This document shows, in pieces, positions 1,741 to 32,597 of a DNA stretch of 64,000 nucleotides. This stretch comes from Escherichia phage CJ20: sequence record MT533174.1, one strand, 5' to 3'. How positions within the stretch are numbered: position 1 is the first letter of the stretch; each line of letters starts with the position of its first letter. Both the position numbers and the translations under genes were made by a program. The notes under the pieces are model-generated. The model made no database searches. It saw only the letters and a program-made list of their open reading frames with translations, and had not been told where the DNA came from.

Positions 1741-4455
1741 ATGCAAGAATTTTATTTAACTATCGAACAAATCGGTGACAACCTGCTCGAACGATATATT
1801 GACAAGAATGGTCATGAACGTGTTCGTGAAATCCCTTATGCTCCATGCTTGTTTATGCACGCCCGAGAAGACCAGGCTGCAAAGTATACAGACATCTATA
1901 ATAAAGGTTGTGTGAAAAAAGAATTCGATTCCATGCGTGATGCATCCCAGTGGATGAAGCGAATGAATGACATGGGTCTCGAAGCTATGGGTATGGACGA
2001 CTTTAAACTCGCATACTTGTCCGACCGTTACCCACACGAAATCAAATATGATTCAAGTAAAATCCGTGTTGCTAACTTCGATATCGAGGTGACATCTCCC
2101 GATGGGTTCCCCGAACCGTCTGAAGCACGTCACCCTATTGATGCCCTGACGCACTATGATTCGGTAGACGATAAATTCTATGTCTTTGACCTTTTGGACT
2201 CACCATACGCCACTGTGGAGCAATGGTCTATTGATATTGCTGCTAAGCTGCAGGAAGATGGTGGTGATGAAGTCCCGGAAGAAATCCTGGAAAAAATTGT
2301 TTATATGGCTTTCGATTCAGAAGAAGAAATGCTCCAGCAGTATTTGGTATTCTGGAACGAGAAAACTCCGGTTATGTTAACTGGTTGGAACATCGAGAAG
2401 TTTGATATTCCATATATCTACAACCGCCTTAAAAATGTATTTGGTGAAGCTACAGCAAAACGTCTGAGCCCGCATCGTCGTACAAAAGTTAAGGTCATTA
2501 ACAACGGCTTTGGTGAAGAACAAGAAATCATTCAGATTCTGGGTATCTCTGTTCTGGATTATCTGGACCTGTATAAAAAGTTCAGCTTCACAAACCAACC
2601 GTCTTATTCGTTGGATTATGTTGCGGAATCTGAACTGGGTGTTGGTAAACTCCCGTATGATGGCCCAATTTCTAAACTGCGCGAATCAAATCACCAGCGG
2701 TATATTTCTTATAACATCATCGACGTTTATCGTGTTGTGCAGATTGACCGTAAGCGGCAGTTTATTAACCTGAGTCAGTCAATGGGTTATTATGCAAAAA
2801 TGCAGATTCAGTCTGTATTCAGCCCAATCAAAACTTGGGATGCGATTATCTTTAACAGCCTGAAGACTCAAAACAAAGTCATTCCGGAAACCAAATCGCA
2901 TGTTCGTCAATCGTTCCCTGGTGCATTTGTTAAGGAACCTATTCCGAACGCATACAAATATGTAATGAGCTGTGACTTAACATCTCTGTATCCGAGCATC
3001 ATCCGACAGATTAACATCAGTCCAGAAACGATTGCCGGTTCATTTGCTCCAGCCCAGATGTATGAATACATCGCAGGAACTGCTGACCGTCCATCTGATA
3101 CATTTAGTTGTGCTCCAAATGGTATGATGTATTTTAAAGATGTTGCGGGTATTATTCCGACAGAAGTCACCAAGGTGTTTAATCAGCGTAAAGAACACAA
3201 AGGCTATATGCTTGCGGCTCAACGTAATGGTGAACTGATTAAGGAAGCTCTGCGTAATCCAGGAACTGGTACAACCGAGCCTGAAGTTGATTATCGTCAT
3301 GACTTTGATGACAATATGAAAACAACCTTGCATGGTCTGAATCAAACAGTCCTAAATGGTATGTTGTACAAAGCGCAGATGGAAGAAGTTGCAGGCATGA
3401 CCGCGCAGATTAACCGTAAACTACTTATCAACAGTTGTTATGGTGCTCTGGGTAATATCTGGTTCCGTTACTTTGACCTGCGAAATGCAACCGCGATTAC
3501 ATCTTTCGGACAACTTGCATTGCAGTGGATTGAGCGTAAAGTTAACGAATACTTCGATAGTGTTTGCGGGACAAGCGGCGAAACTTATGTGTTCTATGGC
3601 GATACTGACTCCATTTATATCCAGTGCGATAACCTGATTAAAAAGGTTGGTGGCGAATCTAAATTCCGCGATACAAACCACCTGGTTGACTTCATGGACA
3701 AGTTCGCGAAAGACCGTCTGGAACCGGCAATCGATAAAGCTTTCCGTGAGCTGGCTGAATACATGAACAACAAACAGCACCTTATGTTTATGGACCGTGA
3801 GGCGATTGCATGTCCTCCACTGGGTTCTAAGGGTGTTGGTGGGTTCTGGACGGCGAAGAAGCGTTATGCGTTGAACGTGTACGATATGGAAGGTACACGA
3901 TATGCTGTTCCGAAACTGAAAATCATGGGTCTGGAAACTCAAAAGTCGAGTACTCCAAAGGCATGTCAGAAAGCTCTGAAAGAATGTATCCGCCGTATGC
4001 TGCAAGAAGGTGAAGAATCTCTGCAGACATACTTCAAGGAATTCAATAAGGAATTTAATGAGCTTAACTACATGACCATCGCAGGTGTATCATCGGTTAA
4101 CAACATCCAGAAATATAATGAAGGCGGTTTCCCTGGATTTAAGTGTCCGGCCCATATCAAAGGTGTGCTTGCATATATGCGTGCAACTAAAGGTCTGAAG
4201 ACTGTTCCGCAAATCATGGAAGGGGAAAAGGTGTATGTACTTCCTCTTAAAGTCGGCAACCCGTTTGGTGAAACCGTGATTGCATGGCCATCTGGGATTG
4301 AACTCCCGATTGAAATCCGTGACCAGGTTCTGCAGTGGATGGATTACAGTGCCTTGTTCCAGAAGACTTTTGTTAAGCCATTAACAGGTTTCTCTGAAGC
4401 TGCAAAGGTTGATTACGAAAAGAAAGCAACTCTTTTTGATATGTTTGACTTTTAA
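1741..4455 (+). CDS. 43: DNA polymerase gp43 (family B)
   Basis: 904 aa; exonuclease motif FDIEV, polymerase motifs SLYPSII, YGDTDS; end-to-end similarity to remembered T4/RB69 gp43. Confidence 0.97.
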   Translation: MQEFYLTIEQIGDNLLERYIDKNGHERVREIPYAPCLFMHAREDQAAKYTDIYNKGCVKKEFDSMRDASQWMKRMNDMGLEAMGMDDFKLAYLSDRYPHEIKYDSSKIRVANFDIEVTSPDGFPEPSEARHPIDALTHYDSVDDKFYVFDLLDSPYATVEQWSIDIAAKLQEDGGDEVPEEILEKIVYMAFDSEEEMLQQYLVFWNEKTPVMLTGWNIEKFDIPYIYNRLKNVFGEATAKRLSPHRRTKVKVINNGFGEEQEIIQILGISVLDYLDLYKKFSFTNQPSYSLDYVAESELGVGKLPYDGPISKLRESNHQRYISYNIIDVYRVVQIDRKRQFINLSQSMGYYAKMQIQSVFSPIKTWDAIIFNSLKTQNKVIPETKSHVRQSFPGAFVKEPIPNAYKYVMSCDLTSLYPSIIRQINISPETIAGSFAPAQMYEYIAGTADRPSDTFSCAPNGMMYFKDVAGIIPTEVTKVFNQRKEHKGYMLAAQRNGELIKEALRNPGTGTTEPEVDYRHDFDDNMKTTLHGLNQTVLNGMLYKAQMEEVAGMTAQINRKLLINSCYGALGNIWFRYFDLRNATAITSFGQLALQWIERKVNEYFDSVCGTSGETYVFYGDTDSIYIQCDNLIKKVGGESKFRDTNHLVDFMDKFAKDRLEPAIDKAFRELAEYMNNKQHLMFMDREAIACPPLGSKGVGGFWTAKKRYALNVYDMEGTRYAVPKLKIMGLETQKSSTPKACQKALKECIRRMLQEGEESLQTYFKEFNKEFNELNYMTIAGVSSVNNIQKYNEGGFPGFKCPAHIKGVLAYMRATKGLKTVPQIMEGEKVYVLPLKVGNPFGETVIAWPSGIELPIEIRDQVLQWMDYSALFQKTFVKPLTGFSEAAKVDYEKKATLFDMFDF

Positions 4456-4457
4456 GT

Positions 4458-4487
4458 GTTTACAACGGCAATGGATTGCCGTATGAT
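4458..4487 (+). promoter_or_regulatory. Early sigma70-type promoter (GTTTACA -35, TATGAT -10) with a 6-bp hairpin in the spacer
   Basis: TTTACA 4459-4464, 17-bp spacer containing CGGCAA-TGGA-TTGCCG, TATGAT 4482-4487; upstream of imm. Confidence 0.5.
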
Positions 4488-11653: not shown

Positions 11654-12682
11654 ATGTCATATATTGATAGAGAATTTGCAGTCAAAGCTTTATCGTATCA
11701 ACCACGTTACAGAGAAGTCACCGGGAGCACATTTAAGGCAAACTGTCGTTGTAAGGTTTGTGGTGACTCCCAGAAAGATTCGCACAAGGCTCGATTCTGG
11801 GCGTATACTAATCCGGCCGATGGCGCGGTTTACGTGAAATGTTTTAACTGTGACTACTCCACGCATATAAGCAAATACATAAAAGAGTTTGAGCCAGATT
11901 TACACCGGGAATATATGGTCGAGAAGTATAAGGAGAATGCATTTGGGCGGCAACGCACTGAAGTTGTCGAAACTCCGAAAGAACCAGAAAAAACTCCGGT
12001 TATTGAGCAGCTTGCTTTTTGTGAAAGACTCGATACTTTACCAGAAGCACATCCGATAGTTAAGTATGTAAAAAGTCGGTGTATTCCGAGCAATGTTTGG
12101 AACCGGTTATGGTTTACAAACCAATGGCCTGCATTAGTTAACTCCGTCAATCCTGGGACGTATAAGAATGAAACGAATGAGCCACGCTTGGTTATTCCTA
12201 TCTTCAACGGCAAAAAAGAAATCGAATCTTTCCAAGGACGAGCTCTTCGCAAAGATGCACCACAAAAATATATCACAATCAAAGCTCACCCAGAAGCTTC
12301 CAAAGTCTATGGCGTAGACAAGATTGACGAGCGCAAGCGTGTATGGGTAATGGAAGGTCCAATTGATAGTTTGTTTATCCCTAACAGCATTGCGATAACC
12401 GGTGGAACATTAGCATTGGAAGCCGTTCCTTATGCTGAAACCAGAGTATGGGTGATGGACAACGAGCCAAGACATCCGGATACGATTAAACGTATGAAGA
12501 AGCTCGTTGAAGCTGGCGAAGCTGTTATGTTCTGGGACAATGCACCATGGCATACGAAAGACATAAATGAGATGATTAAATCAGAAGGAGCAACCCCTGA
12601 ACAAATCGAATCATATATGGCCGATAACGTTGCTCAAGGGTTGATGGCGAGAATGCGACTTTCGAAGTACGCAAAAGTTTAG
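11654..12682 (+). CDS. 61: DNA primase gp61
   Basis: 342 aa; zinc-binding CRCKVCGDS...CFNC; TOPRIM-like region; matches remembered T4 gp61. Confidence 0.93.
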   Translation: MSYIDREFAVKALSYQPRYREVTGSTFKANCRCKVCGDSQKDSHKARFWAYTNPADGAVYVKCFNCDYSTHISKYIKEFEPDLHREYMVEKYKENAFGRQRTEVVETPKEPEKTPVIEQLAFCERLDTLPEAHPIVKYVKSRCIPSNVWNRLWFTNQWPALVNSVNPGTYKNETNEPRLVIPIFNGKKEIESFQGRALRKDAPQKYITIKAHPEASKVYGVDKIDERKRVWVMEGPIDSLFIPNSIAITGGTLALEAVPYAETRVWVMDNEPRHPDTIKRMKKLVEAGEAVMFWDNAPWHTKDINEMIKSEGATPEQIESYMADNVAQGLMARMRLSKYAKV

Positions 12683-12709: not shown

Positions 12710-12741
12710 AAACATCATGGACTTTTTAGCCCATGATGTTT
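12710..12741. other. Stem-loop (10-11 bp stem AACATCATGG/CCATGATGTT, 10-nt loop)
   Basis: Perfect inverted repeat between gene 61 stop and the 3' end of a minus-strand ORF; possible bidirectional terminator. Confidence 0.4.
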
Positions 12742-13083: not shown

Positions 13084-13602
13084 ATGGCTCATTTTAACGA
13101 GTGTTCCCAACTGATTGCTGGTGTTGATAAAGCTGAAGAAGCTTATGACAATGCGATTACAAAAGGTACTGACCCGCTGCAGATTATGCTTGATATGCAG
13201 AAATCATTGCAAGTTCGTCTGGCTACTGAAAAACCAGAATATAACTCACATCCAGATGAATTAGCTACTGCAGGTGATGTTGTTGCATGGCTTCGTAACC
13301 AGAAAGATTATGTCGACGACGAATTCCGTGAACTTCTGACTTCTCTCGGTGGTATGTCTAATGGCGAGAAAGCTGCATCAAGTTGTTGGAAGCCGTGGAA
13401 AGCACAACATGCTGAATTCCGTAATCGTCGTATTGATGAGTTGTCTCCTGAAGACCAGCTCGAAATTAAATTTGAGATGATTGATATCCTGCACTTTGTT
13501 CTGAATATGTTCCATGGTCTTGGTCTGTCAGCAGAAGAAATCTTTAAACTGTATTACCTGAAAAATGCCGAGAACTTTGCTCGTCAGGACCGAGGTTATT
13601 AA
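13084..13602 (+). CDS. 56: dCTPase/dUTPase gp56 (MazG-like)
   Basis: 172 aa; MAHFNEC start, DPLQ.MLDMQ, SPEDQLEIKFE..DI.HFVLNMF, ending NFARQDRGY, matching remembered T4 gp56. Confidence 0.85.
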   Translation: MAHFNECSQLIAGVDKAEEAYDNAITKGTDPLQIMLDMQKSLQVRLATEKPEYNSHPDELATAGDVVAWLRNQKDYVDDEFRELLTSLGGMSNGEKAASSCWKPWKAQHAEFRNRRIDELSPEDQLEIKFEMIDILHFVLNMFHGLGLSAEEIFKLYYLKNAENFARQDRGY

Positions 13603-13893: not shown

Positions 13894-13901
13894 TATAAAT
13901 A
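13894..13901 (+). promoter_or_regulatory. Late promoter box TATAAATA for soc
   Basis: Exact T4 late consensus 30 nt upstream of soc ATG with SD AAGGAG. Confidence 0.6.
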
Positions 13902-13931
13902 CACCCATATTAAACAACAAAGGAGTTTAAT

Positions 13932-14165
13932 ATGGGTGGTTTCGTTAATATCAAAACCTTCACGCATCCAGCTGGTGAAGGTAAAGAAGTTAAAGGTACT
14001 GAGGTTTCAGTTCTGTTTGAGATTTATTCAAACGAGCACCGTATTGCCAATGCTCATTATCAGACTTTCCCTTCGGCCGTTGCAGCCTATACTACTGTAG
14101 TGACTGATGCAGCCGATTGGCGAACTAAGAACGCGGCGATGTTTACGCCGACTGATATTGTTTAA
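13932..14165 (+). CDS. soc: Small outer capsid protein Soc
   Basis: 77 aa; VNIKTF, AHYQTFPS, AAYTTV match remembered T4 Soc; late promoter upstream, terminator downstream. Confidence 0.75.
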   Translation: MGGFVNIKTFTHPAGEGKEVKGTEVSVLFEIYSNEHRIANAHYQTFPSAVAAYTTVVTDAADWRTKNAAMFTPTDIV

Positions 14166-15797: not shown

Positions 15798-15826
15798 TTT
15801 ACTTACTCCCCTCCTAATGACATAAT
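15797..15826 (+). promoter_or_regulatory. Early sigma70-type promoter
   Basis: GTTTAC 15797-15802, 18-bp spacer, CATAAT 15821-15826. Confidence 0.45.
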
Positions 15827-15853
15827 GGTCTTTCTTACAACAGAGAGGCCATT

Positions 15854-16414
15854 ATGAACATCATCAAATCTGATACCGAACCCAACCAGTTAAAATTTAG
15901 TGAAATGGAGATAGCTTCATTATTTGAATGCCGCACATCAAAGGTTGATAAGGCATTGCATTCAAACGTTAACTCAATCATCAAGTCAAGGTTATCTGTG
16001 CCTGATACAGTCTTGTATCGTGGGATTACCCAGCAAGAGATTGATTTGTTAGATGAAGCAAAAGAATCAATGCAACCTTTTGAATTTGGAAGGATAACCT
16101 CCTTTACAGAAGACTATGGTATTGCCAGGGATTTTGCCGCAATGGAATATGTGTCAAGGACTATCATCAGATTGAATCATACAAAAGCTTTTTGTTACCA
16201 TGATGCGATGCGCAAAATCGCGCTTGACGTTCCACTGGAATTCTTCAATACAGCTTCTGGTTCCGAACAGGCAGCAACGTTAAGACGTGAAGAATACATG
16301 GACATGATTGATTCTGAGCTTGAATGGTTTGTTCCAGTTGACCAGAAATTCGTGATAGTTGATGCTGGATTTGTTGGTGATTATTATGTTCTTGACTGTG
16401 TACAAGCACAATAA
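15854..16414 (+). CDS. ADP-ribosyltransferase, ModA/ModB family
   Basis: 186 aa; R-S-E type motifs LYRGIT, ITSFTED, ELEWFVPVD; first of a tandem pair; ModA versus ModB orthology not resolved. Confidence 0.7.
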   Translation: MNIIKSDTEPNQLKFSEMEIASLFECRTSKVDKALHSNVNSIIKSRLSVPDTVLYRGITQQEIDLLDEAKESMQPFEFGRITSFTEDYGIARDFAAMEYVSRTIIRLNHTKAFCYHDAMRKIALDVPLEFFNTASGSEQAATLRREEYMDMIDSELEWFVPVDQKFVIVDAGFVGDYYVLDCVQAQ

Positions 16415-25749: not shown

Positions 25750-25772
25750 GGTCTCCTTCGGGAGACCTTTTT
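25750..25772 (+). terminator. Rho-independent terminator (GGTCTCC-TTCG-GGAGACC + T run)
   Basis: Perfect 7-bp stem, TTCG loop, TTTTT. Confidence 0.75.
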
Positions 25773-26298: not shown

Positions 26299-28533
26299 AT
26301 GATTTTAGAAACTGAAAAGGAAACAATCCTTGGTAATGGTGCCAAGGCATCAGCATTCACAATCCAGGCATCTCCGAAGGTGTTTAAGATTCTGACCAGC
26401 GACCTTTATACAAACAAGGTGCGCGCGGTTGTCCGTGAGCTGATTACCAATATGATTGATGCTCATATGCTCAATGGCTGTCAGGATAAATTCATTGTGC
26501 AAGCTCCTGGTGAACTGGACCCACGTTTTGTATGTCGTGACTTTGGTCCGGGTATGAGTGATTTCCAGATTCGTGGTGATGAAAATACTCCAGGTCTGTA
26601 TAACAGTTTCTTTGCATCATCCAAGGCTGAATCCAACGATTTTATTGGTGGCTTTGGCCTGGGTTCTAAATCTCCGTTCAGTTATACAGAGACGTTTAGC
26701 CTGATTTCATATCATGATGGACAAGTTAATGGTTATGTCGCTTATATGGACGGCGATGGTCCACAGATTAAGCCAACCTTTAGCGAACCAATGAAACCTG
26801 GTGACCGCACAGGGATTGAAGTTGTTGTCCCAGTCGATAGTAATGATTTTGGTAAGTTCCGCTACGAGATTGCATATATCATGCGTCCATTCGCTGGACT
26901 GGCTGAAGTGCAAGGCGCTGGCGAAATTGAATACTTCCCGGAATTTGATGATTACTATGCTCCAGCGCGTATTAATTATAGCAGTCCAGAACGTTATGGA
27001 CTTTATGCAATTTATGGCGGAATTGTTTATCCGATTGGTGATGGTTACACCAAGAAAACCTGGATGACTGCCAAAAATGATGTTGTCTTTATTAAGTTCC
27101 CGATGGGTTCGTTGGATATTGCACCTTCTCGCGAAGCGTTATCACTGGACAAACGTACGGTCGCAAATATCGTTGAACGTATTGAAGCCCTTGATAAGAA
27201 AGTCATGGAAGACGATTGTAAGAAATGGCAGGAATCAGAATGTCTCCGCCATACATATCGCGAATTGCAGAATCTGAATTATGAAGCTCGTAATTTTCTG
27301 AAAGCTCGTAATGTTGAAACGAAATTTACGAAATCACAATTGACCTTTAATCAGATGTACGAAATGTTCGAGCTGGACAAAGACCTTATTAATGCCGGGG
27401 TTGTCTATGATATCTATCGTGACACTCGTCTGAAACGTCTGCGTAACGCAAGCTCAAGCTCGAACACAGCAAGTCTGACGAGCATGTTTGGTATTCAGAA
27501 TGATACCTTGAACATTGTTATTGACGATGTTAAAGGGCGAATTGCGATGATTCGTGGTATCAGTTCAATGTTGTATGATACCAGCGCAAAAGCTAAAAAG
27601 CTTATTGCATCTGGTAAAGTCCCGACTCGTCAGGGTAGTAGTCTACTGTTTGTTGACCCGACCAGCGAAATTCAAACACGGTTGATGGTTCAACTCCAGG
27701 AACGATTTGAAGGCGATACAGTTAATATCTATCGTACGTCTGAACTGACTGCCCTTGTAAAAGACTGGATTCCGGTTGCTGACCCGAAAGCGCGCGTTAA
27801 GTCAAAGACTCCATCATTGATTCGTTGGACTAAAACCAATGGTCGCTGGCAGTCTGTTGAAGAATTTACATGTGCAGCTGATGCAGAGGAAATCGATGGT
27901 TATGCTGTATTCATTAACCGCAGTAGCATTTCCCCGTTGAATCAAGAATATGGCACCACGACCTTCGGGACCCAGACATTGTGCAAACTGGCGAATCTGT
28001 TGGAAATCAATGAATTCTGTGTTATTCGTCCACAGCTTCAGAAAAAGGTTACCAAGCTGGCGCAGTGCGATTGTCTGATTGAAGCTGCAGTCAATCGTTA
28101 TGTGGAATTGATTGATGCGGTTGATGCAGACCAGTACATTGCCGCTTCAAGCCGTTCGCGTTATTATATTCCTATCCTGTCTGAATATGCAGAACTGAAT
28201 TTTATGTTCAAGTATTTTTATGCAAAAGATGTTCAGAAAGATGTGAATACTGACTATGCCGAACTAATGCAGTTCAATAAGTTCTTTGCTTATAACGCAT
28301 ATAACAGTGGAACGGTTGATAAGACCATGCAGGAAACGCTGGTCCTTTGTAATAAGATTTATGACGACCTGACCAAAAACGCTTCGGTAACAAGCGATAA
28401 AATGGTTTTTGAATTTGAAAAGAATCACCCGATTGTTTCACACTTTTTATATAACCGTAACGCTATGTCAACTGAACAAGTACAGAACGTTGCTCAAATC
28501 ATGAAGGCCGTGGAAGCGGCCAATAAGGAATAA
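26299..28533 (+). CDS. rIIA: rIIA protein (GHKL ATPase-like N-terminus)
   Basis: 744 aa; N-terminal motifs RELITNMIDA, DFGPGM, GGFGLGSK; followed directly by rIIB. Confidence 0.9.
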   Translation: MILETEKETILGNGAKASAFTIQASPKVFKILTSDLYTNKVRAVVRELITNMIDAHMLNGCQDKFIVQAPGELDPRFVCRDFGPGMSDFQIRGDENTPGLYNSFFASSKAESNDFIGGFGLGSKSPFSYTETFSLISYHDGQVNGYVAYMDGDGPQIKPTFSEPMKPGDRTGIEVVVPVDSNDFGKFRYEIAYIMRPFAGLAEVQGAGEIEYFPEFDDYYAPARINYSSPERYGLYAIYGGIVYPIGDGYTKKTWMTAKNDVVFIKFPMGSLDIAPSREALSLDKRTVANIVERIEALDKKVMEDDCKKWQESECLRHTYRELQNLNYEARNFLKARNVETKFTKSQLTFNQMYEMFELDKDLINAGVVYDIYRDTRLKRLRNASSSSNTASLTSMFGIQNDTLNIVIDDVKGRIAMIRGISSMLYDTSAKAKKLIASGKVPTRQGSSLLFVDPTSEIQTRLMVQLQERFEGDTVNIYRTSELTALVKDWIPVADPKARVKSKTPSLIRWTKTNGRWQSVEEFTCAADAEEIDGYAVFINRSSISPLNQEYGTTTFGTQTLCKLANLLEINEFCVIRPQLQKKVTKLAQCDCLIEAAVNRYVELIDAVDADQYIAASSRSRYYIPILSEYAELNFMFKYFYAKDVQKDVNTDYAELMQFNKFFAYNAYNSGTVDKTMQETLVLCNKIYDDLTKNASVTSDKMVFEFEKNHPIVSHFLYNRNAMSTEQVQNVAQIMKAVEAANKE

Positions 28534-28534
28534 T

Positions 28535-29509
28535 ATGTTTAATATTAAAGCTTTATCCAAATTTGACCAAAACCAGGTAGTTTCTCTTTATAAAACTGGT
28601 AATTATACCCAACAGGAACTAGCAGATAATTTCGGTGTATCGGTTGACACCATTCGCCGTGTTTTGAAAAATGATAAAGAATCAAAATTAGCTAAAACCA
28701 TTTCTGCATCACTGAAAGCAGCTGTTGGTGTGGCGATTAATGCTCCGGTGACAGTAACGGTTGAAGTCCCGGTTGTTGAAGATACAATCGGCGGAAGCCG
28801 CCCGGAAATCGTATGGAATGCATCAAGCAAATTCGTTTCCATCACTGAAGGTCGTACGGTCTGGAACGCAACAAAAGACCATAAACACTTTAATGATATT
28901 ATTCAGGCATTGATTGAATCTCGTTTTGATGATGCTATCGAGTTTATCTCAATCAAAGCTGCAGTACAAAAATATGTGAAAGGTGATGTGCGTATTGAAG
29001 GTGGTAGCCTGTTCTATCAGGGAATTGAACTGCGCTCTGGCCTGGTTACTCGTATCATTGATTCAATGCAAAATGGCGAAGACTTTGAATTCTATCTGCC
29101 ATTCCTCGAGAATCTCCTTGAGAACCCGAGTGAGAAAGCTGTACAGCGTTTGTTTGACTTCCTGGTTGCGAACGATATCGAAATCACCGAAGACGGTCAT
29201 TTCATCGCCTGGAAAATGGTTCGTTCAACCTACAAAGATTGCCACTCAAACACATTTGACAACAGCCCTGGCCAATATGTTAAAATGCCGCGCTCTCGTG
29301 TGAATGACAATGACGAACAGACCTGTTCAACTGGGTTGCATGTTTGCTCTAAAGGTTATATCGGAAGTGGTTTTGGTCATGGTGATGGACGCATCGTATC
29401 CTGTAAAGTTCACCCGCGTGATGTTGTAAGTATCCCGGTGGATTATAATGACAGTAAGATGAGGGTCTGTGGTTACCTGGTTCTTGATGATGTAACTGAA
29501 CAATTCTAA
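28535..29509 (+). CDS. rIIB: rIIB protein
   Basis: 324 aa; N-terminus with LYKTGNYTQQELADNFGVSVDTIRRVLKN matches remembered T4 rIIB. Confidence 0.9.
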   Translation: MFNIKALSKFDQNQVVSLYKTGNYTQQELADNFGVSVDTIRRVLKNDKESKLAKTISASLKAAVGVAINAPVTVTVEVPVVEDTIGGSRPEIVWNASSKFVSITEGRTVWNATKDHKHFNDIIQALIESRFDDAIEFISIKAAVQKYVKGDVRIEGGSLFYQGIELRSGLVTRIIDSMQNGEDFEFYLPFLENLLENPSEKAVQRLFDFLVANDIEITEDGHFIAWKMVRSTYKDCHSNTFDNSPGQYVKMPRSRVNDNDEQTCSTGLHVCSKGYIGSGFGHGDGRIVSCKVHPRDVVSIPVDYNDSKMRVCGYLVLDDVTEQF

Positions 29510-29542
29510 ATTAATCGGGGTTTCGGCCCCTAATGAGGCTTT

Positions 29543-29740
29543 ATGTTAGGTTTCCAAGCACGTGCAGTTGAAGAACATGACCAGCTGGTTTTGAAAATCA
29601 ATGCTCTTGAAGAATTTATTAAGGGCGGTGTTTTTGAAACTCTCGATGCTCGTCAACAAGGTCTTTTGATTGCACAACTTGACGCGATGGGCGCTTATGC
29701 TCATGTACTGGCAGTTCGTATCTCTTATTTTGGTGAATAA
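29543..29740 (+). CDS. Hypothetical protein (65 aa)
   Basis: ATG 29543; helical-looking; no homology recognised. Confidence 0.35.
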   Translation: MLGFQARAVEEHDQLVLKINALEEFIKGGVFETLDARQQGLLIAQLDAMGAYAHVLAVRISYFGE

Positions 29741-29743
29741 ATT

Positions 29744-30013
29744 ATGATTAAGCATTTCAATGTGTCAGACCGTGACATCAAAGTTTCAAATCTCCGGGGT
29801 CATCATTATGCAGGAATAGTTTACTGCGGTAAGCTCATCAAGCATGAAGGTGATGTTCACTATGGTTGGTTGGAATGTGATGAAGTAGTTGTTGGGGAAT
29901 TCCCTGACCCGGATTCTGATACATTTGATGCTAATGACCGTTTGTATTATGGCGAGCTTCACATCCGTGGAATCGTCGGTATCGATGAGGTCGTAAATGA
30001 TTCAGAAGAGTAA
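29744..30013 (+). CDS. Hypothetical protein (89 aa)
   Basis: ORF in series; acidic C-terminus. Confidence 0.4.
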   Translation: MIKHFNVSDRDIKVSNLRGHHYAGIVYCGKLIKHEGDVHYGWLECDEVVVGEFPDPDSDTFDANDRLYYGELHIRGIVGIDEVVNDSEE

Positions 30014-30590
30014 AACCTGGGAGCATCTGAAAAAGATGCCCTCCTTTCTTTATACAAAGGAAGACTTAAACCCCGAATCCCTGCAGAAGATTGTAGACAC
30101 GGCCAGGTATTCATTGCGTAAAGACCCAGGTCAGGACCGTGAGCAAGTCATGCAAAGATGTATGGTGGCCACAATGGCTGAACAAGCTATTGCTAAATGG
30201 ACTTCTGGTTTTTTATGTGGCGGCGACGAAGATTACGATAATCCTTATTCCTTTGCATTTGATGTAGTTTCGAAGGAAGGGGTAAGAATCGAAGTCAAGA
30301 CCCACCAGTCTGGTTCCAAATGGATATCCGTACACACTGGCCACCAGGGCGATTATCCGCATGGTTACGGGATTAATCTTGGTCCTTTTATGCAGCACAA
30401 GCTTGCTGACCTTATGATTATGCTCGATGTAAAAGAGACTCTCAAAGGTTATAGATTTAAACCAAAATTCCTTGCTGGGCCTGGTGCTTTCGTTCCTGAG
30501 TCTGGTCTTGTGCAGAAGTCACAAGGGGATGGCTGGTACCTCCGTTCTTGTTCAGAAGAAAAATTTCCCTATCACCGGTTTACAAGCTGA
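29997..30590 (+). CDS. denB: Endonuclease IV DenB
   Basis: 197 aa; LYTKE.LNP, MVATM.EQAIAKW, VKTHQSGSKWISVHTGHQG, NLGPF, GWYL motifs match remembered T4 endo IV; next to rIIB as in T4. Confidence 0.75.
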   Translation: MIQKSKTWEHLKKMPSFLYTKEDLNPESLQKIVDTARYSLRKDPGQDREQVMQRCMVATMAEQAIAKWTSGFLCGGDEDYDNPYSFAFDVVSKEGVRIEVKTHQSGSKWISVHTGHQGDYPHGYGINLGPFMQHKLADLMIMLDVKETLKGYRFKPKFLAGPGAFVPESGLVQKSQGDGWYLRSCSEEKFPYHRFTS

Positions 30591-30604
30591 ACCAACCGTG
30601 TAAT

Positions 30605-30634
30605 AATGTCCTCATACCAACAAATGAGGACATT
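30605..30634 (+). promoter_or_regulatory. Hairpin sequestering the ribosome-binding site of the downstream ORF
   Basis: Perfect 11-bp inverted repeat AATGTCCTCAT / ATGAGGACATT, 8-nt loop; GAGGA lies in the 3' arm, ATG at 30638. Confidence 0.5.
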
Positions 30635-30637
30635 ATC

Positions 30638-30913
30638 ATGGAACACGTTACTACTCACAACATCAAACAAATTCTTATCCAAGCACTCAAAAACAACAAC
30701 ATCAATTTTCCAACCCATGAAATTTTTGATGTGGCATTCAACGAAGTCCAGGGTCAAGTTGCATATTATGACGTTATCGTTTATCTTTCAGAATTTGAAG
30801 TCTACCACCTGACTGAAATTGCTTTCTATCTCTATCGTGGGACTGCAGATTTTACTGGGGTCGTGAATGCAGTTGGCGCATATAAAGAAGTTAAAGAACA
30901 AATGCACAATTAA
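30638..30913 (+). CDS. Hypothetical protein (91 aa)
   Basis: ATG 30638 four nt after the hairpin; no homology recognised. Confidence 0.4.
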   Translation: MEHVTTHNIKQILIQALKNNNINFPTHEIFDVAFNEVQGQVAYYDVIVYLSEFEVYHLTEIAFYLYRGTADFTGVVNAVGAYKEVKEQMHN

Positions 30914-30924
30914 TTAAAAAGTAG

Positions 30925-30954
30925 TGTACATCAGTATGGAGTCTAATGTATAAT
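30925..30954 (+). promoter_or_regulatory. Early sigma70-type promoter
   Basis: AAAAAGTAGTGTACA, TGTACA 30925-30930, TATAAT 30949-30954, leader TGATTCCATACTGAG. Confidence 0.5.
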
Positions 30955-30988
30955 GATTCCATACTGAGCTACTAACTGGAGAAACAAA

Positions 30989-31252
30989 ATGAAATTTAAA
31001 TTTTACTATGTCAAGCATAAAGTTACTGGGGAATTTGTTGCATTTACAACTTCATCCAATAATCAAGGTGATACTTTTACTTCATTGTTCTTATCCAGAT
31101 GGGATTCAGACCAGCCTTATTTGTCCACAAAAGAGCATCTTCAACGTATGGCGAAGGGCGAGCTAAACGATTCTTGGGATAATATTGTGAATAATTGTAT
31201 CAAGAAAGCTATCCAAGAAAATCAACTTGAAATCATTGAGGTGGAATTGTGA
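30989..31252 (+). CDS. Hypothetical protein (87 aa), tandem paralog A
   Basis: N-terminus MKFKFYYVKHKVTGEFVA; paralog of next ORF. Confidence 0.5.
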   Translation: MKFKFYYVKHKVTGEFVAFTTSSNNQGDTFTSLFLSRWDSDQPYLSTKEHLQRMAKGELNDSWDNIVNNCIKKAIQENQLEIIEVEL

Positions 31253-31515
31253 ATATTAAATTATATTACGCCAAGCACAAAGTTACAGGTATGGTTGTTG
31301 CTGCTATGTATGACGCGTCAGGTGATGGTGATGATGTTATTACAGAGTTATCTCTTTCTGATTGTAAATTTCTTCGCCCGTTGGTTGCATCAAAGCGTGA
31401 TTTAAAAAAGCTTATTGATGGTAAGCTGGACAATATTGATGGTATAGATATTTTTTATGACCTCCGCGTCGCATTGTCTGATGGATTGATTGAAATCAAA
31501 GAGGTGATATTTTGA
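31249..31515 (+). CDS. Hypothetical protein (88 aa), tandem paralog B, GTG start overlapping upstream stop
   Basis: N-terminus (M)NIKLYYAKHKVTGMVVA; GTGA start/stop overlap. Confidence 0.45.
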   Translation: MNIKLYYAKHKVTGMVVAAMYDASGDGDDVITELSLSDCKFLRPLVASKRDLKKLIDGKLDNIDGIDIFYDLRVALSDGLIEIKEVIF

Positions 31516-31607
31516 GCAGCAAAACCTGGTGTCTTATCTGGATGTTGTGTATCCCAGTAATTTGCGTTTGTTTTAGTTTATTATTAATGAAACTTGCATA
31601 AAAGAGT

Positions 31608-31635
31608 TGTACATCTCCGGTGGTTGTAGTATAAT
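31608..31635 (+). promoter_or_regulatory. Early sigma70-type promoter
   Basis: TGTACA 31608-31613, 16-bp spacer, TATAAT 31630-31635, leader CCTATCAACTACTGGAG. Confidence 0.45.
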
Positions 31636-31661
31636 GAACCTATCAACTACTGGAGATGATT

Positions 31662-31778
31662 ATGAAAAAGTTACTTAAAGCCATTTGGAACATGTTTGTG
31701 CTGTTTGTTGTCCTGAGCATTTTCCCAATTGTTTTTATGATTGACCATGTGCGTGTTTACTTTAACTATTTCTTTTGA
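31662..31778 (+). CDS. Small membrane peptide (38 aa)
   Basis: ATG 31662 after leader motif; one hydrophobic helix. Confidence 0.3.
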   Translation: MKKLLKAIWNMFVLFVVLSIFPIVFMIDHVRVYFNYFF

Positions 31779-31788
31779 GGATAATATT

Positions 31789-31995
31789 ATGAATTACAAT
31801 TCACACTTTCAGAAATCCAATCGTCGCTTTGACTTTATGTTCAAGTTTATTGTGGCAATGATTATCCTGATTTTCATTGGTGCCATTGCAATGATTGGTT
31901 TCCAGCTCTGGATTGCTGCTGAAGTATTCACACAAATCCAGGATAATGGTTTGAAGTCTGTTGTTGATGTAATTTGGAATGGAGTTAAGCAATGA
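31789..31995 (+). CDS. Small membrane protein (68 aa)
   Basis: SD GAGGATAATATTATG; central hydrophobic helix. Confidence 0.4.
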   Translation: MNYNSHFQKSNRRFDFMFKFIVAMIILIFIGAIAMIGFQLWIAAEVFTQIQDNGLKSVVDVIWNGVKQ

Positions 31996-32237
31996 AACTT
32001 TTTAAAGACATTGCAGTTGGTGAAAAATTTGTCCTGGGTAATGGTCAACAACTGATTCGCATTTCGCCTTTAATGGATTCAAATGAACATCCTGTGCGCA
32101 CTGAAAACTGTTTGGATTATCCTTTTTATCAGAAGCGTTTTGCAATTGAAAATAATACTGAGTGCTTCACAGTTGATGAACTGATGGAATCATCAGAAGA
32201 AGTTGACTTGTGGGATGGTGTGGTAGACCCTGAATAA
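31992..32237 (+). CDS. Hypothetical protein (81 aa)
   Basis: ATGA overlap with upstream ORF; acidic C-terminus. Confidence 0.45.
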   Translation: MKLFKDIAVGEKFVLGNGQQLIRISPLMDSNEHPVRTENCLDYPFYQKRFAIENNTECFTVDELMESSEEVDLWDGVVDPE

Positions 32238-32252
32238 ACTGAGGAAAATATT

Positions 32253-32597
32253 ATGTCTAAAGTATTTTTTGGTAATGCTAAAGTTATGTTCTTTAAACAG
32301 ATTAGCCTTCAGGAGGCGTCGGAGGCATTCAATCAAAGTATGATTCCTGACGTACATCCAAAAGTTATGACGAGTGCTGATTTCGTTTTCGTCCAAGACC
32401 CGGAAACAGGCTTTTATCGGTTCATTAAATTTCGTATGAGTATGGAGCCAGGTTATCATAGTGCTTACTACGTGAGTTATGAAAATGTTATCAAAGAATT
32501 GCGTAATACCTATAAGCGCGCTTTGACCCCGCTGAATAAGGTGTATAATGCTTCCTTTTATACGAGCGGATTTATTTTAGAACAACTTCAAAAATAG
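32253..32597 (+). CDS. Hypothetical protein (114 aa)
   Basis: SD GAGGAAAATATTATG; no homology recognised. Confidence 0.45.
   Translation: MSKVFFGNAKVMFFKQISLQEASEAFNQSMIPDVHPKVMTSADFVFVQDPETGFYRFIKFRMSMEPGYHSAYYVSYENVIKELRNTYKRALTPLNKVYNASFYTSGFILEQLQK

Follow-up and report, generated by a model that had tools for sequence, protein, structure and literature searches.

The stem-loop behind denB of Escherichia phage CJ20 as the probable hairpin of a PeSL-like early-promoter cassette, predicted to mask a translation start on read-through RNA

Promoter-early stem-loop (PeSL) cassettes are found in the hyperplastic regions of T4-type phages (Arbiol, Comeau & Krisch 2010, PMC2839356; Comeau, Arbiol & Krisch 2014, PMC4122927), and the consensus of the PeSL/T4 promoters is TTTACW-N17-TAYWAT (PMC4122927). 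The five published positions of the PeSL stem all lie upstream of the transcription start, and the stems are read as terminators or attenuators. Early promoters of T4 belong to the UP/-35/TGn/-10 type (PMC2988021), carry the consensus GTTTAC at -36 to -31 (PMC1524935), and are shut off 2–3 min after infection (PMC3014915); furthermore, a preference for C at positions -3 to -1 has been reported for the early promoters of RB69, RB49, and 44RR (PMC1524935).

A different arrangement, in which a hairpin sequestering the ribosome binding site (RBS) also holds a promoter in its 5' arm, has been described for T4 e, soc, 49, I-TevI, I-TevII, I-TevIII, and segB and for mobE of Aeh1 (PMC3014915, section 29; PMC2988022). 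For e, soc, 49, and I-TevI, experiments have established the masking mechanism (PMC3014915; PMC2988022), and the genes controlled through RBS sequestration “are all late genes” (PMC2988022). In the literature covered, which is incomplete, we found no paper on an early-promoter version of such a masking hairpin.

The locus considered here belongs to Escherichia phage CJ20 (MT533174.1), a T4-type phage of the VR7/SP18 group (genus Gaprivervirus); the window is the whole stretch of 64,000 nucleotides that was analysed. In this region, which is 97–100% identical to that of Escherichia phages 212 and DCP80, the gene order is rIIA (26299-28533), rIIB, denB.1, an ORF of the DUF7418 type, denB, and a series of small ORFs toward ndd. 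The cassette is placed where the conserved rIIA-rIIB-denB unit meets the variable block of small genes, and comprises, with its two flanking genes, the following features:

29997-30590, + strand: denB, coding for endonuclease IV (197 aa), with its TGA at 30588-30590 and 95–100% identity to annotated Gaprivervirus denB genes.
30559-30566, + strand: A-tract AAAAATTT, at about -55 to -48 and within the denB coding sequence; possibly UP-element-like, a weak assignment.
30578-30584, + strand: predicted -35 element GTTTACA, which fits the T4 early consensus.
30596-30641, + strand: full helix, formed by the 13-bp core and 5 outer bp, AUG included.
30596-30600 (CCGUG) and 30637-30641 (CAUGG), + strand: outer helix of 5 bp in the MFE fold, separated from the core by a 2-nt bulge, with the start codon paired.
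30599-30607, + strand: predicted extended -10 element, TGT (-15 to -13) plus AATAAT (-12 to -7, 30602-30607); of these, 30603-30607 also form the base of the 5' arm.
30603-30636, + strand: core hairpin, a perfect 13-bp stem (ATAATGTCCTCAT, 30603-30615, with ATGAGGACATTAT, 30624-30636) closing an 8-nt loop (ACCAACAA, 30616-30623).
30608-30613, + strand: discriminator GTCCTC (-6 to -1), complementary to the Shine-Dalgarno (SD) region and paired with GAGGAC (30626-30631).
30614, + strand: predicted +1 (A30614), seven nucleotides after the -10 box according to the promoter geometry; A30616 is the alternative.
30626-30630, + strand: SD sequence GAGGA, inside the 3' arm and seven nucleotides before the AUG.
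30638-30913, + strand: downstream ORF (91 aa), homolog of VR7ORF288c and member of phrog_17571 (unknown function).

The inverted repeat is real and bigger than first described. An earlier note on this DNA had reported a perfect 11-bp stem at 30605-30634, and the sequence AATGTCCTCAT-accaacaa-ATGAGGACATT agrees with that description letter for letter, including the GAGGA in the 3' arm; the pairing is indeed perfect, but it extends over 13 bp. The spacings given there, 4 nt from the arm to the ATG and 15 nt from the denB stop to the hairpin, become 3 nt (ATG at 30638-30640) and 14 nt before 30605, respectively; the core stem itself begins 12 nt past the denB stop and the outer helix 5 nt past it. 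The 46-nt element (30596-30641) has a folding energy of -22.0 kcal/mol (z = -6.2), with 0 of 200 shuffles as stable, and its 101-nt context (30560-30660) one of -27.8 kcal/mol (z = -6.0), again with no shuffle equally stable.

Perfect inverted repeats of at least 10 bp with loops of 3–12 nt occur three times in the 64-kb window versus a mean of 0.65 in 100 dinucleotide shuffles of it, and those of at least 13 bp twice versus a mean of 0.01. The other two repeats of at least 10 bp are a terminator-like hairpin and the classical hairpin of soc. At 12710-12741, just past ORF 11654-12682, lies a perfect 11-bp repeat (AAACATCATGG/CCATGATGTTT) with a T-rich tail behind it, which resembles an intrinsic terminator. 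The Rfam scan of 30300-31100 assigned no family, the only hit being sub-threshold (18 bits versus a gathering score of 60) and on the other strand. The loop ACCAACAA was also considered as a repeated element of the window and discarded (8 matches versus 3.7 expected).

The 5' arm of this hairpin is shared with a conserved, predicted early promoter of the T4 type, which the earlier note had overlooked. The combination of TTTACA, 17 nt, and AATAAT with TGn gave 10 of 12 matches in the promoter scan; on the + strand of 29400-32400, it is the joint-best match and the only one with 10 of 12 in which a TG precedes the -10 box. The -35 box falls within the last codons of denB (CGG TTT ACA AGC TGA, ...RFTS*), while the -10 box retains A at -11 and T at -7 and has A instead of T at -12. 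Since the placing of GTTTAC (-36 to -31), A (-11), and T (-7) is that of the T4 consensus, the predicted transcription start falls on A30614. With this numbering, the 5' arm (30603-30615) would consist of -10 box, discriminator, and the two bases that are transcribed first, while the loop would correspond to the beginning of the leader and the 3' arm to the SD sequence and the spacer, with the AUG joined to the structure via the outer helix. According to the folding analysis, an RNA from -35 to AUG+6 reaches -28.0 kcal/mol, and one from the predicted +1 only -2.0 kcal/mol (z = +0.8), no better than its shuffles. No late promoter (TATAAATA) was found in 30500-30700, nor any middle promoter with a MotA box at the site; for the T4 counterpart, regulatory features are annotated neither in NC_000866 nor in AF158101.

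The locus shares most of its traits with PeSL cassettes. It is intergenic and combines a predicted early promoter of the sigma-70 type at a gene end, conforming to TTTACW-N17-TAYWAT, with a stable stem-loop (13 + 5 bp), and it lies in a hyperplastic region, the T4/PST denB-ndd interval being the region of Fig. 6A of the PeSL papers. Moreover, an SD sequence and a start codon (GAGGA 30626-30630, ATG 30638) of a gene with no assigned function stand at its 3' end, and the layout is repeated (the census of early-type promoters counts about 15–20 cassettes in the window) and placed at gene-replacement junctions between phages. Unlike the published stems, however, the one described here straddles the predicted +1, and it contains no polyG/polyC tract. 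Given that the stem straddles the start and that its 3' arm consists of SD, spacer, and AUG, the predicted consequence is translational.

In this respect, it resembles the T4 e/soc class, in that the SD and/or AUG would be sequestered, according to the predicted fold, on a long RNA initiated upstream, and a promoter in or at the 5' arm would give a shorter RNA lacking the inhibitory strand, provided that the +1 is where we predict it. The proximal promoters of that class are late (TATAAATA), whereas the present one is predicted to be of the early sigma-70 type, and expression is therefore predicted to be immediate-early rather than late. An intrinsic terminator would also have a stable hairpin soon after a stop codon; here, in contrast, the stem is rich in A/U and lacks a U-tract behind it, and its 3' arm is formed by the translation initiation region (TIR). 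We infer that the element combines two known kinds, the PeSL cassette and the promoter-in-hairpin logic of T4 e and soc, with an early promoter in place of the late one.

Reading into the element is expected from its genomic context. The interval between rIIA (26300) and 30579 contains no T4-type early promoter, so that denB has no promoter of its own in the sequence scanned upstream of 30579, and no convincing + strand terminator was found from rIIA to 30600; for this reason, transcripts of the rIIA-denB unit would be expected to run through into the hairpin. Upstream of rIIA, at 25750-25767, a strong terminator-like hairpin (GGTCTCC-TTCG-GGAGACC, the same in both directions) is followed by a T-run; the rIIA-denB transcription unit probably begins there.

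Homologs of the downstream ORF were retrieved from 34 phage records, all from the group to which the window belongs (Gaprivervirus wherever a genus is given); Pfam gave no hit for the protein and PHROGs no function, and the labels “MafI” and “HNH-like” attached to it in two GenBank records are unsupported. In phage fDHCT2 (L003, about 1060-1080), the ortholog carries a 16-nt deletion causing a frameshift and is unannotated; the upstream promoter and the hairpin, with one U.G pair, are kept. Farther downstream, the adjacent small ORFs 30989-31252 and 31249-31515 overlap at stop and start and are paralogous, both belonging to phrog_2390 (unknown function); as VR7 has a single copy there, a tandem duplication or an indel took place.

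Our preferred reading, to which we assign a probability of roughly 60%, is that the hairpin is the stem-loop of a PeSL-like early-promoter cassette, in which RNA arriving by read-through is masked and promoter-proximal RNA is translatable. It builds on the helix, the promoter motif, the overlap of the two, their conservation, and the compensatory changes of the stem between genera. According to this reading, the polymerase would start at about A30614, and the resulting mRNA (5'-AUACCAACAAAUGAGGACAUUAUCAUG), being devoid of the 5' arm, would be freely translated right after infection. Transcripts entering from rIIA-rIIB-denB would carry both arms and form the helix of about -22 kcal/mol, in which SD and AUG are masked, so that the ORF would not be initiated; a ribosome terminating at 30588-30590 would reach only the outer helix. 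The same structure may, in addition, have a role in attenuating the denB message upstream of it or in protecting the 3' end of that message. ORF 30638-30913 would, as a result, be expressed solely from its own early promoter, insulated at the level of translation from upstream transcription, and, given the shut-off of early promoters within 2–3 min, its expression would be confined to the immediate-early period.

These predictions bear on the proposal of the earlier note that the SD of this gene is buried and that the gene stays silent until the structure is opened or cleaved. The predicted fold agrees with the burial, and adds the AUG to it, for any RNA with both arms. The waiting, on the contrary, would be unnecessary: the conserved promoter in the 5' arm predicts a separate leader, itself predicted to be unstructured, and thus the downstream gene most likely has a leader of its own without the 5' arm. 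The note's further suggestion, that the hairpin can end or stabilise the denB message, is taken up below among the other readings.

The phylogenetic distribution of the cassette was analysed in 54 loci with DenB relatives (47 IMG/VR contigs plus GenBank phages). TTTACA-N17(16)-TAnnnT is present at or just past the denB stop in 51 of these T4-like loci, T4 included, and the gene that follows varies, with at least 14 unrelated N-termini among the loci (e.g., ndd.6 in T4). A strong helix is found in Gaprivervirus and in the Klebsiella/Enterobacter lineages with the closest DenB (Marfavirus, Kanagawavirus, and relatives). The DNA similarity with the Klebsiella phages extends past denB as far as about 30630, within the 3' arm; in the Klebsiella/Enterobacter phages, the stem TAGTACTCCT/AGGAGTACTA(TA) replaces ATAATGTCCTCAT/ATGAGGACATTAT in the same place, with a nearly unchanged loop (ACACCAACAA) and different downstream genes. 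The hairpin is thus tied to the end of denB and to the promoter, since the phages that keep it have exchanged the gene behind it.

Pairs were compared across genera by tabulating individual folds instead of the MAFFT alignment; counting from the latter was set aside because MAFFT matches the SDs by sequence, so that the pairing register is displaced from one lineage to another. With the -10 box as anchor, the folds share ten pair positions; at six of them, both sides have changed and Watson-Crick pairing is kept, a pattern that comes from few independent lineages and that can partly be explained by a 1-nt shift of the anti-SD register. Shuffling the -10 box and the discriminator alone abolishes the stability in all these cassettes (p <= 0.005 for most).

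Within the genus, four out of five stem substitutions among 12 Gaprivervirus genomes retain the pairing as G.U or A-U: C30597U (C-G to U.G), G30598A (G.U to A-U), C30613U (to U.G), and A30630G (U-A to U.G). The fifth, U30615C, opens the top pair, and one further change lies in the loop. These substitutions would fit a constraint acting on the + strand RNA, where alone G.U-compatible changes are meaningful, even if the events are too few for significance.

Other lineages keep the promoter in a different setting. In Karamvirus-like phages, it is the promoter spacer (CTCCGTTAG) that pairs with the SD (CTAACGGAG), and T4, Mosigvirus, Dhakavirus, and the Acinetobacter phages have little or no such helix after denB, from which it follows that the helix is inessential. 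The loci L094-096 share an identical 3' half (TACTAT AGACTAGAAATCAACTAACGGAG) with L092, L093, L099, and L100 and differ from them in the promoter spacer; only the latter four can pair the spacer with the SD, and L094-096 have no helix, which looks, from the sequences, like recombination within the cassette. A pattern scan of IMG/VR with TCCT-N(2-3)-ACCAACAA-N(1-2)-GAGGA gave 62 loci; those relevant come only from genome-length (~170-kb) T4-like contigs, and the others are chance intragenic matches.

The cassettes of the window do not all follow one design. Cassettes of the classical PeSL kind, whose SD is free and whose stem is located either in the spacer or around the -10 box, are present at 4459, 30925, 32598, 52491, and 53466, and six cassettes pair the sequence before the start with the TIR, the clearest, apart from the one after denB, being those at 15798, 31608, and 8614; the stem sequences differ between all the cassettes of this genome. 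Those that bear on the comparison, together with the soc hairpin, are as follows:

8614: cassette with pairing between the pre-start sequence and the TIR, -13.9 kcal/mol.
13902-13938: soc hairpin, a perfect 14-bp stem (CACCCATATTAAAC/GTTTAATATGGGTG) with the SD (AAGGAG) in the loop and the AUG (13932) in the 3' arm.
15798-15860: cassette of the modB homolog, TTTACT, 17 nt, CATAAT; CAUAAUGGUCUUUCU and AGAGAGGCCAUUAUG pair over 15 bp (-20.8 kcal/mol, z = -6.8).
30925-30972, + strand: next cassette, TGTACA, 18 nt, TATAAT (30925-30954); the stem 30926-30943/30955-30972 (GTACATCAGTATGGAGTC/GATTCCATACTGAGCTAC) encloses the -10 box, and the SD of ORF 30989 is free.
31608-31665: cassette of the ndd.4 homolog, in which the spacer (CAUCUCCGGUGG...) pairs with the SD region (...CUACUGGAGAUG), -24.8 kcal/mol.

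The late promoter TATAAATA (13894-13901) stands directly 5' of the soc hairpin, and ORF 13932-14165 codes for Soc (Pfam, E = 7e-18). This hairpin, the sole other perfect repeat of at least 13 bp in the window, is the textbook case of the mechanism and an internal control. In the 15798 cassette, the -10 box CATAAT is complementary to AUUAUG, and -10 box and discriminator pair with SD and start; the gene that follows (ORF 15854-16411) codes for a ModB homolog (34% identity, E = 1e-24). The layout is the same in T4 modB (L130, about 13130-13185, minus strand), whose stem has diverged, TATGAT-AGCUUCUG/CGGAGGCUAUCAUG (-18.0 versus -1.4 kcal/mol). Likewise, the gene after the 31608 cassette codes for an Ndd.4 homolog (61% identity), and an analogous spacer-SD helix (-20.9 kcal/mol) precedes ndd.4 in T4 (L069, about 2765-2807, minus strand). 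In the early promoters across the window (e.g., 8923, 34975, 52058, 53466, and 60971), the discriminator and initial transcribed sequence follow the consensus nnYCCnAT(C/A)AACTAC.

The same structure might have been produced, or be used, in other ways. Lying so close to the denB stop (12 nt to the core stem), the stem-loop could act solely as a terminator, an attenuator, or a 3'-end stabiliser of the rIIA-denB message, its overlap with the SD being incidental; a terminator or attenuator role was proposed for PeSL stem-loops, one of which, placed before lacZ, cut expression as much as rrnB T1 did (Arbiol et al. 2010, PMC2839356). We consider this restricted role unlikely, as no U-tract follows the stem (CAUGGAACACG; tail CAUGGAACAC), the terminator scan makes no call, just 5 of the 13 core pairs are G-C, and the 3' arm coincides with SD, spacer, and AUG here, in modB, and in the Klebsiella/Enterobacter homologs, which a pure terminator does not need; termination is, in any case, compatible with masking and does not exclude it. 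The burial of SD and AUG could also mean that there is no internal promoter at all, the ORF being read only from the polycistronic denB RNA once ribosomes or helicases have melted the helix or RNase III or RegB has cut it. This is very improbable: the conserved promoter overlaps the 5' arm, and a ribosome stopping at 30588-30590 would reach the outer helix alone. The helix of 13 + 5 bp is, besides, shorter than typical RNase III substrates. As for RegB, its targets in T4 are GGAG motifs of early translation initiation regions (PMC3014915), but the SD of this gene is GAGGAC, without the GGAG/U motif of that enzyme.

An explanation at the level of DNA, namely a recombination hot spot or cruciform for PeSL-type exchange, or an operator at which a dimeric protein would shut off the promoter, would account for several features: the homology with the Klebsiella phages breaks in the 3' arm (at about 30630), at least 14 different genes follow the cassette across phages, L094-096 resemble recombinants in which another promoter spacer was joined to the same 3' half, and in the PeSL literature, crossovers have been mapped between the -10 box and the SD/ATG. 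Recombination, however, would find sufficient shared sequence in promoter and SD without any palindrome, the G.U-compatible substitutions point to RNA, and a common DNA-binding protein is unlikely because the stem sequence differs in every cassette of the genome; in our opinion, an explanation of this kind has quite a small chance of being correct. The helix might, finally, be a functionless by-product of composition, inasmuch as C-rich discriminators and A/T-rich -10 boxes are complementary to G-rich SDs and AUUAU(G) starts. In keeping with this, non-cognate promoter/TIR pairs likewise pair and many lineages, T4 among them, have no helix at the site; the permutation test of cognate versus non-cognate pairs was not significant (p about 0.11), an outcome that, like the non-cognate pairing, we attribute to the generic complementarity of C-rich discriminators (PMC1524935) and G-rich SDs. 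On the other hand, perfect 13-bp stems turn up about 100 times less often under shuffling than is observed, the stem persists across genera despite changes on both sides, and the layout recurs at the orthologous modB and ndd.4 of T4, so that a mere by-product seems rather unlikely.

If the masking of read-through RNA and the translation of promoter-proximal RNA are as proposed, a single element of 60 nt would shut translation on the upstream message, start a new message, and free the ribosome site, and the expression of every small early gene would hinge only on the promoter in front of it. T4-like phages could in this way be able to swap early genes of unknown function, often toxic (e.g., the one for the ADP-ribosyltransferase ModB), at such junctions without upsetting dosage or timing. 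The hairpin logic of T4 e and soc would be extended from late-only to early-only genes, and the conserved C-rich discriminators of T4-type early promoters would be given a testable reason. From the point of view of annotation, a strong RBS hairpin in a T4-like phage should not be labelled as a terminator or a translational repressor until an embedded promoter has been looked for.

More tentatively, and with less confidence than we place in the cassette itself, many -10/discriminator (or spacer) segments of early promoters may have been selected as anti-SD/anti-AUG sequences, so as to constitute a general “early-only” translational gate in T4-like phages. In that case, modB, ndd.4, and the post-denB ORFans would be translated from their own immediate-early RNA and never from delayed-early or middle read-through, and there would be a sequence-level basis both for immediate-early-only expression and for the plug-and-play insulation of shuffled cassettes.
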